A stretch of 53,499 nucleotides of DNA, from positions 4,847 to 58,345 of the forward strand of contig VBBR01000036.1 of the NCBI GenBank assembly GCA_005881615.1, in the 5' to 3' direction. Shown here in pieces: positions 35,822 to 42,952 of this stretch (its first letter is position 1; every line of letters begins with the position of its first letter). The notes below the pieces were generated by a model. That model did no database searches, was not told the origin of the DNA, and saw only the letters and a program-made list of their open reading frames with translations. The position numbers and the translations under genes were made by a program. Origin of the DNA: Candidatus Bathyarchaeota archaeon (GTDB taxonomy: Archaea; Thermoproteota; Bathyarchaeia; 40CM-2-53-6).

Positions 35822-37066
35822 CTAGTGTGGAATCTCGAGAGGTACCAGAGTTGGCTCCGGCTTTGGAAAAGCAGTCTGATGCCTCAGATAGGCGGATGGA
35901 TCCCGTAGCCGTTTCTTCTCACACAGTTTCTCGAGGAACTTTATCCCTTTACCAACCGGATCGAGCGGTTTCATGTCCAGGTATCCGGATTCCACCGCGC
36001 CCCTCAGTATCTCGTCTCCCCTCGGGCTTCTCGTGATGACCGTGCTCCAGCCAGGAGAGGATCCTATCGCACCGACCGCAATGTCAGCTAGTTCAGCCGA
36101 GTAGTCAACGCAGACATTACATTCTTCACGCGCGGCACCGGCAAGGGCTTCAACTGGCTCGTCGATGGCGAGCTTGTCGCCCGTGTAGACGAGAAGCCTG
36201 TTTCTCTTGATGTTCACCTTGGTAACGTTGCTGAGGTCTATTCCCCTCTTGCCCTGGACATAGTCGACCATCATCTTCTGATAATCAAAGACTTTAGAAC
36301 AGAAGAGGCCGATCGTAAAAACGAGATTTCTCGCGAGCTTTGGCGCGGCTATCCAGTGAGTGCCCATCCGCCAGCTTCCCTGAAGCTCACAAGGGAGGCC
36401 GACGAGAGCGATGCGTTCTTCCTGGAAGTTGACGACCGACCGGTTAGGAATGGCTACCTCAGCGAGCCCTCCCACTTGCCCTCCTGGCGTGTATCTAGAT
36501 CCGGCGTGGTTCAACAAGTCCTCTTTTGTCCGCGCGATCTGAGGCTCGGGCCGCCAAGGCTTGTCCGAGGTTAGGCCAGAGTTGACAGCGTAATCGATGA
36601 TCTTCCGGTCCAACGCGTATAACAAGAGAGAGGTCACCGCACCACCATCCTGGGCTCGCTTGACTACGTCGGGATCTTTCGACTTGACCGAGTACGCTCC
36701 GACGTGGATTCCGAGAATTGCCTCCTCGGCTGTTCTCGCTCTTCCGAATACCTGTTGCTCTATCTCCGCGACAGGCAGTTCAATCCTAGGGCAGCTGTAG
36801 TAGCAGACTTGGCAGGCAGCACACGTGCCCCGCATGACCGGTTCCTCCTTTTCGCTGTGAAAGAGAATATCGATCGGACAAGACGCGATGCAGGCTCCGC
36901 AGTACATGCAGAGGTTCTTGTTCACAACCTCCTGGATGAGATTGCCGAAGATCTTGAGCTTTATCGGCCGCGCTTTCCAGCCTTCACCCTCAACAGTAGA
37001 CTTTAGCGGCACAATCTGAGGAGCGGCTACCGGTGTTGCTGGTTTCGGCGCGGTCTGACCTGACAA
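35822..37066 (-). CDS. fpoF: F420H2 dehydrogenase subunit F / FrhB-family F420-binding subunit
   Basis: CMYCGACIASCP, CAACQVCYYSCP, AQDGGAVT, VGLPCE, IGLFC, CNVCVDYSAELADI, GWSTVITR. Confidence 0.8.
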   Translation of the reverse strand: MSGQTAPKPATPVAAPQIVPLKSTVEGEGWKARPIKLKIFGNLIQEVVNKNLCMYCGACIASCPIDILFHSEKEEPVMRGTCAACQVCYYSCPRIELPVAEIEQQVFGRARTAEEAILGIHVGAYSVKSKDPDVVKRAQDGGAVTSLLLYALDRKIIDYAVNSGLTSDKPWRPEPQIARTKEDLLNHAGSRYTPGGQVGGLAEVAIPNRSVVNFQEERIALVGLPCELQGSWRMGTHWIAAPKLARNLVFTIGLFCSKVFDYQKMMVDYVQGKRGIDLSNVTKVNIKRNRLLVYTGDKLAIDEPVEALAGAAREECNVCVDYSAELADIAVGAIGSSPGWSTVITRSPRGDEILRGAVESGYLDMKPLDPVGKGIKFLEKLCEKKRLRDPSAYLRHQTAFPKPEPTLVPLEIPH

Positions 37067-37069
37067 TGT

Positions 37070-37387
37070 CTATTCCTCCTTCTGGGGCACCTGGGACGCG
37101 CCCCCAATAGTGTCAACGCTGAAAACATACTTGTCGTCCTTCTTTACCGGAGGCTTGGAAAGTCTCTCCGGACTCCACACAAGCCGATCACGCGTATACT
37201 CCGCAATATCATACTCCACCGTCTCCTCCAATGCATATTCTGGACAATAGTCTGTGCAGTTGTGGGCTATCACATTTCCCGCCACGTAGGACTCATCTTC
37301 CTCAACCGAAAGATTCACAACAGGCTGATCAAGAACTTCGACTGACGATATTTTCTCGACCGGCGCGTAGACATAATCTCTGTCCAT
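37070..37387 (-). CDS. nuoI: Intein C-terminal part (43 aa, ending AHN) plus NuoI C-extein (CTDYCPEYAL...)
   Basis: VVNLSVEEDESYVAGNVIAHN|C is intein blocks F/G; the rest completes the second 4Fe-4S motif. Confidence 0.85.
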   Translation of the reverse strand: MDRDYVYAPVEKISSVEVLDQPVVNLSVEEDESYVAGNVIAHNCTDYCPEYALEETVEYDIAEYTRDRLVWSPERLSKPPVKKDDKYVFSVDTIGGASQVPQKEE

Positions 37388-38322
37388 TTCAAAGCGAGAG
37401 AAACAAAACGGCCTCGAACTGTCACCACATAGTTTGGTTTCCGATTAGCGTGGTTGGCAAGTGCAACCTGGCCAACGATTCGTGCCCGGAAGAGGAGTTG
37501 TTGCAGTTGAAAGGCGAGAGTCTTGGAAATCGTTGTGTACTCGAAGAACGTTAAACGATTGCCCCTAGTTGGCATGCGAAGATATCCGTCGCCTCTCCAT
37601 GTTCCTCGTATGAGCTCTCGCTGCTTCTCGGTCGGCGCAAACATGACCCAATCTGGAAGTTTCTTGTTTTCAGAGCCCCGGCCAAAGGTCTCGAAGAATT
37701 GAAGGGCAACTACGGAGTGTAAGAGGACATGGGTCGAATTGTGTATTGTTGACCTCCTCGTTACATGGCCAAAATGTTTTTCCAGGAGTCGGGCCGAGTC
37801 GGCAATGTATTCTTTCTCGTGTTCGCCAAAGGCGAAGCCAACAGTTCTCCTTACAACGTAGCCTTCTGCGAGGTAGTAACCGATTAGCCTGAACAAATCA
37901 GGCTCCGTTATCAGGCTCAGCTTGCTTCTGAGACGTTTTCCTGTGCTGGGCTGACCAACCTCGATCTCCTGTTCATAAACGCCGGTGTCCCGGACCTCCT
38001 TTGCGATAGGGATTGTAAGGTAGTCGCCCCGTTTGAGTTCGAGGGGTGTCTTCCAGACGGGGGGACATGGTTTCTTTTCGAGTCTTAGCTTCTTGACGAT
38101 GTCGCTGGAAGAGACTAGGAGGGGATGATCTTGCGTGACCTTAAGCGGGAAAGGCGCTCCCAACGGCTTGATGCTGTAGAGTCTTCCTGAGTAGTTTCGG
38201 GTAAAGACCTTGCGCACTCGCCGGTAGTGCCCAGTATGCGTTAAGACCCGGTCTCCGGGCTGTATTTGGCCTATGGGTGAGACAGACGGGTTCGTCGTGA
38301 CAAGTGTATCGGGAGTTACACA
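37259..38322 (-). mobile_element. Intein with homing endonuclease, inserted in nuoI
   Basis: Cys1 codon at 38322, His-Asn ending at 37259, +1 residue Cys. Confidence 0.9.
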
Positions 38323-38607
38323 GAAGTGGCAGAAACAACAGCGTCCGTAGAAGTATTGCGGATACCATCGTTGGCCCCGTGGTACGATTGTGATACATTT
38401 CTCGGGGCATATCCACGCGCAAATCCCGCAACCAGTGCATCGATCGAGGTGGAGTAGATGGCGTCCTCTGTATCCTTTCTCAACTGCGTATCGTTGTTGT
38501 GGAAATCTCAGCGTGTAGGGTCTGTGGAAGAGATGTCGGATGCCTGTTAGATACGCGATCGAGATATCGACAGCGGCCTTGGCCTTGCCGATGATCGGGG
38601 CCATCAC
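37315..38607 (-). CDS. nuoI: NuoI/FpoI N-extein plus intein N-part with LAGLIDADG endonuclease (frame breaks near 37400)
   Basis: YRGRH, CTGCGICAWICP, GRCCFCHF|CVTPDTLV; TQDHP block B; LIGYYLAEG and LIRGTWRGDG. Confidence 0.88.
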   Translation of the reverse strand: MMAPIIGKAKAAVDISIAYLTGIRHLFHRPYTLRFPQQRYAVEKGYRGRHLLHLDRCTGCGICAWICPEKCITIVPRGQRWYPQYFYGRCCFCHFCVTPDTLVTTNPSVSPIGQIQPGDRVLTHTGHYRRVRKVFTRNYSGRLYSIKPLGAPFPLKVTQDHPLLVSSSDIVKKLRLEKKPCPPVWKTPLELKRGDYLTIPIAKEVRDTGVYEQEIEVGQPSTGKRLRSKLSLITEPDLFRLIGYYLAEGYVVRRTVGFAFGEHEKEYIADSARLLEKHFGHVTRRSTIHNSTHVLLHSVVALQFFETFGRGSENKKLPDWVMFAPTEKQRELIRGTWRGDGYLRMPTRGNRLTFFEYTTISKTLAFQLQQLLFRARIVGQVALANHANRKPNYVVTVRGRFVSLALKWTEIMSTRRSRKYRQSKFLISLL

Positions 38608-38610
38608 TTT

Positions 38611-39756
38611 CTACCTGTCCGCCTCGACCGGCCAGTAATCGATGCTCCACCAGGCCGTGGGCATGTCCGCCAAGCGGTTTCCAATCAGAACTGCCGGTAT
38701 AGCCGCCATGTTTCGATATGATCCCGTAATGTACCTTGCACGGTAAGGCTTGTCCCCTCCCTCTCCGATCAGATAGAAGCTACATTCGCCCCGGGCCGAC
38801 TCGACCCTGCCATACGCGACTCCACGAGGAAGAACTATTGGAGCTTTTCTCCGGATCGGTCCCGTAGGAATCTTCTTGACAATCTGGCGGATTATCTTGC
38901 AACTCTCTCGCATCTCGTCCATATGCACCATCGCCCGGCTGAAGGAATCCCCATCGGGCCTGGTTGAGACTTCGAAAGATAGTTCCGGGTAGGCTGCGTA
39001 TGGTTCGTCCTTGCGAAGATCAGCATCAACACCGGACCCTCGAAGCGTCGGTCCCGTGCATCCCAGTTCGATCGCCTTCTCCTTCGACAGTACCCCGATT
39101 CCCTTGGCTCGGGATGTGAACAGCGGGTTGTTGAAGAATATCCGGTCGTACTCCTTGAGACGTTTCTCGAAATACTCTGTTCTCTTGACAGCCTCCTCGG
39201 CGAATCCAGGAGGAAGGTCGCGCCTGACCCCGCCTGGAACAAGATAGGAGTAGGTGATTCTGGCCCCTGTCAGCTTCTCTGCGAGGTCGATGAACAGCTC
39301 TCTATCTCCAAGGGGCCACATAAACATAGTAGTGTGGCCGAGAAATACGCCGTAAATGGAGAGCCAATAGAGATGGCTCATTATCCGGTTCATCTCGTTC
39401 AGGAGAGTTCTGAGGTACTGTCCTCTCAGCGGGACCTCGACTCCCTGAATCTCCTCGATGGATCTCACCCACGCATGGTTGAGGTTGGAAGCGTCGATGA
39501 TAGAAGGTCTCTCGATGACAGGTATGCTCTTGATGATATTTCTGAGCTCGATAATCTTCTCGATACCCCTGTGGACATAACCCGGGTCCGGTGCAACATT
39601 GACAATAATGTCTCCGTCCACCTCTACGATCAACCGCATGTGTCCGGAGCCAGAATGCTGGGGACCAACGCTCAAGGTGAGCGTCTGAGCGCCAGAGTCA
39701 GAGGTCTCAGTGGACTCAACGGTTGTTAGGGGAACAGGTTTCGATGGTGCTGACAT
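38611..39756 (-). CDS. nuoD: NADH/F420H2:quinone oxidoreductase subunit D
   Basis: GPQHSGSGHMRL, GYVHRGIEK, RIMSHL, TGPTLRGSG, VESARGE; no NiFe CxxC motifs. Confidence 0.93.
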   Translation of the reverse strand: MSAPSKPVPLTTVESTETSDSGAQTLTLSVGPQHSGSGHMRLIVEVDGDIIVNVAPDPGYVHRGIEKIIELRNIIKSIPVIERPSIIDASNLNHAWVRSIEEIQGVEVPLRGQYLRTLLNEMNRIMSHLYWLSIYGVFLGHTTMFMWPLGDRELFIDLAEKLTGARITYSYLVPGGVRRDLPPGFAEEAVKRTEYFEKRLKEYDRIFFNNPLFTSRAKGIGVLSKEKAIELGCTGPTLRGSGVDADLRKDEPYAAYPELSFEVSTRPDGDSFSRAMVHMDEMRESCKIIRQIVKKIPTGPIRRKAPIVLPRGVAYGRVESARGECSFYLIGEGGDKPYRARYITGSYRNMAAIPAVLIGNRLADMPTAWWSIDYWPVEADR

Positions 39757-39763
39757 CGGGAGC

Positions 39764-40246
39764 TCAGTCCGTAGGGAATCGTATGTCCTTCCGGAGTGGA
39801 GGCGGCCCGTCCCAGTTATCGGTCAGAAACAGCTTTTCCAATCTCGGGTGGCCATCAAACTGTATTCCGAACATCTCAAAGCTTTCTCGCTCATAGTTCT
39901 CTACACCCGACCAGACTGAAACTAGAGATCCTACTTTGGGGGCGTTTCTGGGAACTGACTCTTTCAGGTCAAGAACGAGATTCCGCATCTCCTTGGTACG
40001 GATCGATGAAATATGGTAGACTATTTCGAACCTGTTCTCTCGATTGTAGTCGACAGCCGAAACTCCATTCGGATGATCAAAGCTCAACTTGTCCCGCAAA
40101 TATACCGCGACTTCCTTGATCTTTTCGGGCGCAACAGTCACCTCAAGCCTCCCGCGGCGGATGATGTTTGTTTCCTTGATGTCGGTAGGAAAGGCTTCTT
40201 TCAGTTTCTGGACGAGATCATCTTCTCTTTCGTGAGAGAGACTCAT
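39764..40246 (-). CDS. nuoC: Complex I subunit C
   Basis: SAVDY, ERESFEMFGIQFDGHP, PLRKD. Confidence 0.93.
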   Translation of the reverse strand: MSLSHEREDDLVQKLKEAFPTDIKETNIIRRGRLEVTVAPEKIKEVAVYLRDKLSFDHPNGVSAVDYNRENRFEIVYHISSIRTKEMRNLVLDLKESVPRNAPKVGSLVSVWSGVENYERESFEMFGIQFDGHPRLEKLFLTDNWDGPPPLRKDIRFPTD

Positions 40247-40794
40247 CCCTGCTCATACACCTTTGACCTTCGAATCTTCTCTTGAAGCATGATGATTGCC
40301 TGCTCCAAAGCCTCCGGTCTTGGAGGGCAACCGGGAACGTAGACGTCGACTGGAACGAACTCGTGCGCGCCGTTCACTATGCTGTAGGAATCATGGAATA
40401 GGCCGCCAGACATGGCACAGTCTCCCATTGCGATAACATATCTGGGCAACGCCATCTGGTCGTAAATCATCCGGAGCCGCTTCGCCATCTTCTTCGTGAT
40501 TGTCCCTTCGATCACAATTAGGTCTGACTGTCGGAGAGAACCTATCGGTAGAACTCCGAATCTTTCAAGGTCATGTCGTGCGCCGCTGGCCGCGCCGAAC
40601 TCGGCACTACAGCAGGCCGTTGTGATATTGACTGGCCAGAGAGAATACATCCGGGCCCAATTGACTACATTTCGGATCGGCCCTGTGTCCACAACTTTCT
40701 TGACAAGGTCGCTCAGTTTGCCAACCCAAATGCTAAGCCCTTCTGCGAGCGTCGCCACCGGGTCTTCTTCTTGTGCCGTTCTCTGAGCGGACAA
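40243..40794 (-). CDS. nuoB: Complex I subunit B
   Basis: TACCSAE, DLERFG, MGDCAMSGG, VDVYVPGCPPRPE. Confidence 0.95.
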   Translation of the reverse strand: MSAQRTAQEEDPVATLAEGLSIWVGKLSDLVKKVVDTGPIRNVVNWARMYSLWPVNITTACCSAEFGAASGARHDLERFGVLPIGSLRQSDLIVIEGTITKKMAKRLRMIYDQMALPRYVIAMGDCAMSGGLFHDSYSIVNGAHEFVPVDVYVPGCPPRPEALEQAIIMLQEKIRRSKVYEQG

Positions 40795-42139: not shown

Positions 42140-42952
42140 GTGCCTGTGCTGCCGAAGTCGTTCGAAACTGGGATCGATGCGGTGGACAAGGTCCTCCCGA
42201 AGGGCATACCTCGAAACAGCCTCACAATTCTAGCAGGAGACCTAGGAACAGGAAAATCCGTCTTGATGGAGCAACTCCTCTACAGCATGCTGAAAATAGA
42301 GAAAGAGCCTTGCATCTACATGAACTTCGAAGGACCCCCAATAGCGTTACAACAAGACATGGAATCCTTCGGCTGGAACATTGACCGATACCTTGATTCC
42401 GGGCAGCTCAGGTTTCTGGACTGTTTCTCCTTCAGAATGGAACCAACGGAGACTCCGAAATATTCTCACTTCGTCAAGGATCCGAAGGATCTTCACTCTG
42501 TTACGAGCGCGCTTTTCACGATGATGGAAGAGATGAAGATGATGGGAAGAGGAGCCGTCTTCGTCGATTCTTTGACTGAAATGTTTACTCTGGTTCAAGA
42601 AGAGAGACCGCTTGTCTTCCACATGCTTGATGGAGTCAAGTCGTGGAGGGCTAAGGGTCCCAAGGAACGCCTTGTGCCCTTCTTTTGCTCGCACCATACA
42701 CCGCTACGAGCCTACGCCGATCTCGACGATCTACTGTTCTATGTGGTGGATGGAATAGTCGATGTAAGATTCAACCCCGGGTTCGCGGACAGGGGGCTAC
42801 TAGTCAAACAGTTCCGGGTACGGAAGATGAAAGGCGCACCCCATGAAACCTACTGGGTTACATTCCAAGTTACTTCGGACGGAATTGTGGAGGTTCCGCT
42901 CCCAGTGCCTGTACTCACATCGGACAAGCCCCGTACAGGCAAAAAGAAGTAG
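42140..42952 (+). CDS. KaiC/RAD55-family ATPase
   Basis: TGIDAVDKVLPKGIP, GDLGTGKS, VFVDSL, VVDG, VRKMKGAPH. Confidence 0.9.
   Translation: MPVLPKSFETGIDAVDKVLPKGIPRNSLTILAGDLGTGKSVLMEQLLYSMLKIEKEPCIYMNFEGPPIALQQDMESFGWNIDRYLDSGQLRFLDCFSFRMEPTETPKYSHFVKDPKDLHSVTSALFTMMEEMKMMGRGAVFVDSLTEMFTLVQEERPLVFHMLDGVKSWRAKGPKERLVPFFCSHHTPLRAYADLDDLLFYVVDGIVDVRFNPGFADRGLLVKQFRVRKMKGAPHETYWVTFQVTSDGIVEVPLPVPVLTSDKPRTGKKK

Follow-up and report, generated by a model that had tools for sequence, protein, structure and literature searches.

Inteins are biased toward proteins of the replisome, as the 2016 survey reports (PMC4760082), and the earlier note on the DNA analysed here set against that same bias, described there as one toward replication, repair and nucleotide metabolism, an intein that it saw in a respiratory iron-sulfur subunit. 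The description of such a host as unusual has its limit, since iron-sulfur hosts as such are already known in SufB, MoaA and PorB; the host table of 2016 lists MoaA and one case of a PorB intein (PMC4760082). In the Pyrococcus abyssi MoaA intein, which resides in an oxygen-sensitive host, a cysteine at position −3 of the N-extein (Cys-3) forms a disulfide with Cys1 of the intein (PMC3922620, PMC10663303). The mycobacterial SufB intein, whose junction has His-5, Gly-1 and Cys+1 (PMC8891592), is oxidation-sensitive in vitro (PMC6195587). Two inteins in one gene, of which one is sometimes endonuclease-free, are described for haloarchaeal MCM-a/MCM-d, Thermococcus mcm and Mycobacterium smegmatis dnaB; interference between neighbouring MCM inteins is described as well, and co-homing of mini-inteins is named as an open question (PMC10643990).

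The class 1 endonuclease inteins TliVMA and PhoVMA (7qsu, 7qss and 7qst), PI-SceI and PI-PfuI have a Hint domain split by a LAGLIDADG endonuclease, Cys1, a TxxH motif, a terminal His-Asn and Cys+1. All of these are shared by an intein in nuoI of the window, the whole stretch of 53,499 nt of archaeal DNA that was analysed, at 12–18% identity and in a respiratory iron-sulfur subunit instead of an ATPase or a replication protein. The NuoI intein is known in kind and, within the literature searched, new in host and site. Supplement file 2 of the 2016 survey holds no COG1143, NADH, 4Fe-4S, NifU or hydrogenlyase entry (PMC4760082), and no paper on a NuoI intein was found in the literature searched, with most subscription journals and InBase lying outside that search; to this extent the earlier view of an unusual host is borne out. 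The survey of NuoI homologs proposed along with it yielded both occupied and empty alleles of the insertion site, which is not catalogued in the same literature. The locus is probably explained by a selfish, homing class 1 LAGLIDADG intein seated at a cluster cysteine of NuoI, together with an assembly mis-join that broke the copy in the window.

The nuoI locus and its intein

The genes concerned form a row on the minus strand, in the order nuoB, nuoC, nuoD, nuoI and an FrhB/FpoF-like gene. The features of the row and of the intein, whose insertion site in NuoI is here called site b, are:

35822..37066, minus strand: FrhB/FpoF-like F420-binding subunit (PF04422 and PF04432)
37070..37258, minus strand: 3′ part of nuoI, the C-extein (sequence and empty alleles)
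37070..37387, minus strand: 105-aa ORF from an internal ATG, covering the C-extein and the 43 intein residues before it, found on one contig only
37256-37258, minus strand: Cys+1 codon, third ligand of the second cluster motif (Cys+5 is the fourth)
37259..38322, minus strand: intein at NuoI site b, 1064 nt here against 1119 nt in relatives
37259-37264, minus strand: His-Asn, C-terminus of the intein
37315..37317, minus strand: stop codon of the shifted frame (ORF reading)
37402..37403, minus strand: 55-nt gap where the endonuclease domain ends, with 18 codons and 1 base missing (alignment with relatives)
37403..37530, minus strand: patch of another strain type, matching L021 and not the otherwise closest L024
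37585..37878, minus strand: LAGLIDADG endonuclease core (Pfam, fold match and conservation)
37585-37605, minus strand: block E, GTWRGDG, in the endonuclease core
37648-37665, minus strand: KKLP, in the endonuclease core
37861-37878, minus strand: block C, YYLAEG, in the endonuclease core
38125..38136, minus strand: block B TxxH (TQDH) of the splicing domain
38320-38322, minus strand: Cys1 of the intein (sequence)
38323..38340, minus strand: CCFCHF, end of the N-extein, with the first two ligands of the second cluster motif
38323..38607, minus strand: 5′ part of nuoI, the N-extein, about 94 aa, with a Fer4 match; GTG start at 38607 or ATG at 38604
38329-38331, minus strand: Cys-3 codon of the N-extein, second Cys of the second cluster motif
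38404-38439, minus strand: first CxxCxxCxxxCP motif of nuoI, within the N-extein
38611..39756, minus strand: nuoD, 49 kDa subunit family (PF00346, E 1.9e-80)
39764..40246, minus strand: nuoC, 30 kDa subunit family (PF00329, E 1.8e-33)
40243..40794, minus strand: nuoB, 20 kDa subunit family (PF01058, E 2.3e-28)

The host gene was identified through an empty allele, L016, which matches the NuoI-type structures 6u8y_N (E 6.8e-19) and E. coli NuoI 7awt_I (E 5.1e-18). Its best NCBIfam families are of the NuoI type, with scores under the cut-off (TIGR01971, 93.9 against 113.05; FpoI, 71.4 against 180), and the NuoI candidate has both CxxCxxCxxxCP motifs. In NuoI-type subunits, two patterns of four cysteines hold the clusters N6a and N6b (PMC9783039). 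No second, intact nuoI was found in the source genome, which is 89% complete, and the gene is thus single-copy there. The first three cysteines of the second motif serve N6b and the fourth serves N6a, so that both clusters would need a ligand from the C-extein.

The FrhB/FpoF-like gene is likely the electron-input module, its FrhB and FpoF NCBIfam matches all being under the curated cut-offs. Complex I-like genes occur in two places in this genome: nuoBCDI with the FrhB/FpoF-like gene in the window (40794-35822), and nuoA, H, J, K, M, L and N-like genes on contig C191, where the membrane-arm genes were recognised by similarity to nuoI neighbours in named loci. A KaiC-like ATPase (PF06745) lies just upstream of the operon on the opposite strand (42140-42952). 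Intein-bearing nuoI genes are mis-annotated, with source names including SufB, DNA helicase and hypothetical protein, so that complex I can go unnoticed in the genomes concerned.

The intein ends proposed in the earlier note, 37259 and 38322 on the minus strand, proved exact, and its assignment of the +1 nucleophile to the third cysteine of a CxxCxxCxxxCP motif was confirmed, the motif being the second of NuoI. The junctions read CCFCHF|CVTPDT at the N end and HN|CTDYCP at the C end. Empty alleles of the same genus (L016–L020) read CCFCHFCTDYCP with nothing inserted, and this continuity across the site fixes both junctions and places Cys+1 in the motif. Relative to the empty alleles the insertion is precise and in frame, with 1119 nt (373 aa) in 11/11 complete relatives, and CCFCHF is identical in 43/43 alleles of the family, whether the intein is present or absent.

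By its motifs, the site-b element has the usual form of a class 1 intein. Pfam matches on the 5′ ORF are Fer4 (E 1.2e-5) and LAGLIDADG_3 (PF14528, E 7.9e-10), both above cut-off, and Hint_2 (E 3.9e-6), marginally below it; on the 3′ frame there is a weak Intein_splicing match below cut-off (E 0.0065). Conservation was read from 99 complete site-b inteins, many of them near-copies (best 120 of 234 hits, plus L002). In this set Cys1 and TxxH are invariant (99/99), the acidic catalytic residues of the two LAGLIDADG motifs are kept in block C (Glu, 93/99) and block E (Asp, 97/99), and the last two residues are HN in 69, SN in 27 and KN in 3. Lengths range from 369 to 374 aa, and no endonuclease-free site-b intein occurs among the 99. 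In block F of the Bathyarchaeia group, Asn stands where Asp is the usual residue (PMC10663303). In the site-b inteins of Nitrososphaerales (P0080-P0123, L152-L171) Ser or Lys often replaces the penultimate His. A structure model of the L002 precursor is confident in the intein part and matches endonuclease-bearing intein structures (best 7qsu, E 5.5e-23), which points to the Hint fold; as the exteins have pLDDT <50, the model is uninformative on cluster loading and on the distance from Cys-3 to Cys1. Further inteins were seen elsewhere in the same genome (G000 C5, C16, C50 and C69). Their apparent hosts are an EF-2-like GTPase, pieces of a Hel308/Ski2-like helicase, with more than one insertion site, and an unnamed ORF truncated where its contig stops.

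The frame break in the window copy

The identification of an intein in NuoI holds for its site, ends and splicing motifs. The contiguous precursor that was taken for granted with it does not hold for the window copy, in which the break had been missed. The intein here has 1064 nt, which is not divisible by 3, and the 55-nt gap shifts the frame into the stop at 37315. The C-terminal splice junction and the N-terminal part therefore sit in different frames, and the copy as assembled cannot yield a contiguous precursor. The 105-aa ORF is a by-product of the gap.

Sites that differ between L021 and L024 reveal the patch of another strain type. The window agrees with L024 at 34/34 such sites in 36900-37402 and at 17/19 in 37531-38322, and with L021 at 10/10 in the intervening 37403-37530. 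The 55 nt and an open frame are present in all five metagenome contigs retrieved by a 25-base motif beside the gap, two of which are 98–99% identical to the window. Among the four runs examined of 20 listed, contigs of X1 and X3 carry the 55 nt, a related strain in X2 shows the longer form, and no contig of X5 crosses the place. The segment is likewise found in 6/6 cluster members read, whole in five and partial in one whose contig starts inside it, and each of the two fragment proteins is found on one contig only, equal in length to the contig of the window. A patch about one read long beside a gap is what a scaffold mis-join by an assembler would leave. Since the gap borders a read-sized patch of a foreign strain and was seen on no other contig, it is likely an assembly mis-join and not a real deletion.

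Two biological readings of the break have to be set against the mis-join. Imprecise recombination or re-homing between strains could have brought in a short foreign tract and deleted the 55 nt, thereby breaking nuoI. The adjoining 115–150 nt are of the other strain type at 10/10 sites, as gene conversion would give; the locus is demonstrably recombinogenic, the frame of G279 is also broken, and no short repeat that would yield the joint was found at the gap, so the joint is unexplained by a simple repeat. Nevertheless, a real deletion is unlikely. The read-long patch is also expected of a mis-join, the remaining gene and operon are without decay, and the gap is absent from the five metagenome contigs, from the contigs crossing the place in the four runs and from the six cluster members. 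Furthermore, a true loss would likely be costly, because nuoI is the sole copy in a genome with membrane-arm genes on C191. Alternatively, the break could mark a nascent split intein, in which the 105-aa ORF would be made separately and trans-splice with the N-part. This is very improbable, even though an in-frame ATG lies 15 nt past the gap, the 43-aa C-fragment has the size typical of natural split inteins, and the missing residues belong to the endonuclease domain, at its end, and to none of the splicing blocks. The ATG is preceded by no ribosome-binding-like sequence, lies 70 nt inside the upstream frame and encodes what is an ordinary internal Met in intact relatives, and no split relative was found. 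A programmed frameshift and a natural split intein were both considered and rejected, since relatives have an unbroken frame and the gap amounts to a simple loss of 55 nt. The window copy warns against taking a broken frame in a single assembly as evidence of a pseudogene or of a split intein. The break in G279 (L112, G279:C16) consists of one extra base within the endonuclease of its NuoI intein.

Distribution of the intein within the family

Site b could be read in 43 genomes of the family, being occupied in 17 and empty in 26. Occupied and empty alleles number 13 and 9 in genus g1, 2 and 0 in g2, 2 and 9 in g3, 0 and 1 in g4, and 0 and 7 in g5. Twelve of the occupied alleles are complete and in frame, three are cut by contig ends, and two are out of frame (that of the window genome, G000, and that of G279). 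Within 301 genomes of the class, full-length matches to the NuoI intein come from this family only, among the matches listed. On a tree of the flanking DNA, built from 37/43 genomes after six with short flanks were dropped, the intein state needs 8 changes, 7 of which are forced by strong branches. Shuffled labels need 11 changes on average, and 19–26 of 500 shuffles were as low as the observed 8; the label is somewhat clustered on the host tree, and vertical descent with losses accounts for part of the distribution.

Synonymous differences in the intein and in nuoD disagree in both directions. The pair G019/G021 differs by 0.13 in the intein against 0.54 in nuoD, and the pair G018/G017 by 0.53 against 0.14; the pair G004/G010 was left out on account of a misaligned nuoD row (68% protein identity). 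The occupied G020 and the empty G011 differ at 8/750 bases of nuoD and at 12/150 directly 5′ of the site, as would be expected of a co-conversion tract. Median pairwise dN/dS, from the 28/105 pairs with dS of 0.1–1.5, is 0.128 for the endonuclease, 0.127 and 0.116 for the splicing halves and 0.26 for the linker, and the endonuclease is under purifying selection. From these sequence comparisons the intein is most likely a homing element that is still moving, lateral transfer being shown by the disagreement between intein and nuoD. With 17 of 43 alleles occupied, 8 changes of state and the endonuclease kept, it does not have the character of a domesticated regulatory intein.

The predicted endonuclease would cut empty nuoI alleles, and repair would copy the intein in. 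The choice of site is understandable, because the +1 residue of an intein has to be Cys, Ser or Thr and to occupy a position that is conserved and hard to lose, and an invariant cluster ligand gives both. The 529-aa precursor would then be spliced by the class 1 route, which is expected to pass from the Cys1 thioester through transfer to Cys+1 to Asn cyclisation, into a normal NuoI of 156 aa. The spliced protein would then bind both clusters and be built into a complex I-like enzyme whose input is of the F420 type. Splicing likely must come before cluster assembly, as the earlier note had argued, because Cys+1 is itself a cluster ligand, and metal bound early on Cys+1 could stall splicing.

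Paired sites and cluster cysteines in related inteins

Nitrososphaerales/Thaumarchaeota loci carry a site-b intein that is about 40% identical to that of the window, and the paired sites in these related archaea are the most interesting part of the comparison. A second site, a, lies in the same motif 18 nt (six residues) upstream of b, in the arrangement DYGR|a|CVFCGL|b|CVDACP, and its Cys+1 is the first cysteine of the motif. Long matches were found in 24 of 201 Nitrososphaerales genomes, 12 with b only, 7 with a only and 5 with both; one further b is partial, at a contig end. The a-only inteins are all full length (7/7), and 4/5 of the paired a inteins are mini-inteins of 172–182 aa. A protein search from the a intein, in which 96/108 hits were classified (5 of the 12 others being non-NuoI), placed a mini-a beside b in 29/33 cases and a full-length a beside b in 11/63. 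The mini-a form has 2–3 origins on the tree and four mini-a inteins stand alone, so that the association is a lead and not a test; a Fisher test on the mini-inteins (p 1.5e-11) was rejected as evidence because of these 2–3 origins. A mini-a beside b fits co-homing with the site-b intein, and repair begun by b would likely copy a too, because only 18 nt separate the sites. In the NuoI pair, set beside those of MCM and dnaB, both sites fall within a single cofactor motif, 18 nt apart, and it is mainly the paired alleles that have lost an endonuclease. Two-intein NuoI precursors with the CVFCGL bridge are L149-L151, L159, L172, L033, P0079-P0104, P0124-P0154 and P0218, and their upstream intein is often a mini-intein of 162–182 aa. 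Besides inteins, P0218, P0219 and P0247 have an extra segment of about 110–130 aa between the cluster motifs of NuoI.

In a quick tree of 74 rows chosen from the hits, the site-b inteins from the two archaeal groups come together in a single clade (support 97), which is sister to SufB inteins (92), with the site-a inteins outside that pair (95). Since SufB inteins and not those of site a are sister to site b, a and b are not recent tandem copies. The SufB inteins, inserted at HYxEG|C (best E 6.3e-64, 37% identity), resemble the NuoI intein in Cys+1 and in the iron-sulfur role of the host; SufB, however, builds clusters whereas NuoI carries them, and these SufB junctions are without Cys-3. PorB inteins (WCPG|C...N|CGD) occur in the same archaeal groups and in an energy-metabolism host like NuoI, yet they form a separate clade and are about 33–37% identical to the NuoI intein. 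Hosts of the wider relatives are IscU, PorB, zinc ferredoxin, thioredoxin reductase, ribosomal S19 and many proteins without a name. In 176 junctions mapped from 147 representatives, Cys+1 is present in 138 and Cys-3 in 15.

The precursor would contain Cys-3, Cys1 and Cys+1 as free thiols, and their oxidation or metal binding could slow splicing, a sensitivity which the earlier note had raised. On one rival reading the intein is a gate, worked by redox state or metals to the benefit of the host. Under oxidising conditions Cys-3 would pair with Cys1, or Cys1 with Cys+1, and NuoI would be kept as an inactive precursor until conditions are reducing enough for its oxygen-sensitive clusters to be built. 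The Cys-x-x-|Cys1 spacing is the same as that of the native MoaA trap (PMC3922620, PMC10663303), although a disulfide is shown in MoaA, the likeness in NuoI is one of spacing, and the host families differ. The nearest non-NuoI relatives, the SufB inteins, have a HYxEG|C junction that fits that of the mycobacterial SufB intein, itself oxidation-sensitive in vitro (PMC8891592, PMC6195587), and the insertion sites of remoter relatives include CPG|C in PorB and CAT|C in thioredoxin reductase. The runs that hold the window DNA are soil metagenomes, where oxygen is presumably variable. Nevertheless, a gate of benefit to the host is improbable. The flanking cysteines are cluster ligands that are unchanged in the 26 empty alleles, and their conservation for this reason says nothing on the intein. 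No intein-internal cysteine except Cys1 is conserved (at most 4/59), the element is unfixed and turns over among close kin, and its endonuclease is retained. A second intein has colonised the same motif at site a without a Cys-3 (DYGR|C), Cys-3 is rare among the related junctions, and redox inhibition is not universal across class 1 inteins (PMC6195587).

Comparison across genomes gives no sign of a regulatory role: the element is patchy, mobile and endonuclease-keeping, the same cysteines stand in empty alleles, and site a is without Cys-3. For a homing element of this kind, thiol sensitivity would be a side effect and not the reason for its persistence. Inhibition of splicing by oxidants in vitro is quite possible, if somewhat short of an even chance, because the spacing of Cys-3 and Cys1 equals that of the MoaA trap. 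That the site-b, SufB and site-a inteins group together, all in iron-sulfur proteins, is a counterpoint to a purely site-blind parasite. A bolder reading, which we hold to be doubtful, makes the second 4Fe-4S motif of NuoI a two-site hotspot of a lineage favouring iron-sulfur cysteines, with mini-a riding on b and complex I maturation gated by one or two thiol-sensitive splicing steps. The CxxCxx bridge would then provide the nucleophile of one intein and the Cys-3 trap of the other.

These observations add to the hosts of inteins a complex I-type respiratory enzyme, in which a core subunit is interrupted at a metal ligand. The question of parasite or sensor is cleanly testable on natural alleles, since empty, a, b and double alleles all exist and the Cys-3/Cys1 spacing is present at b and absent at a. 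The paired sites likewise make it testable whether an endonuclease-free intein homes by way of its neighbour.

Several further hosts of related inteins were seen along the way. The beta subunit of 2-oxoacid:ferredoxin oxidoreductase has an intein at a thioredoxin-like CPG|C junction, WCPG|C...N|CGD (L145:1782-3869, L179-L181, P0246), and about a dozen ORFs of 688–696 aa are similar to this intein-bearing form. The IscU/NifU scaffold carries one at GNPV|C...HN|CGD, likely at a cluster-binding cysteine (L123-L125, P0237, P0291, P0321); IscU has no entry in supplement file 2 of the 2016 survey (PMC4760082). In thioredoxin reductase an intein lies between the active-site cysteines, YCAT|C...HN|CD (P0266, P0307, P0326, P0350). 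Related inteins also occur in a zinc-containing ferredoxin and in ribosomal protein S19, as named by NCBIfam (P0241, P0248), and in an apparent archaeal SAM synthetase, GHMP kinase and XPD-like helicase (L126, L147 and L146).
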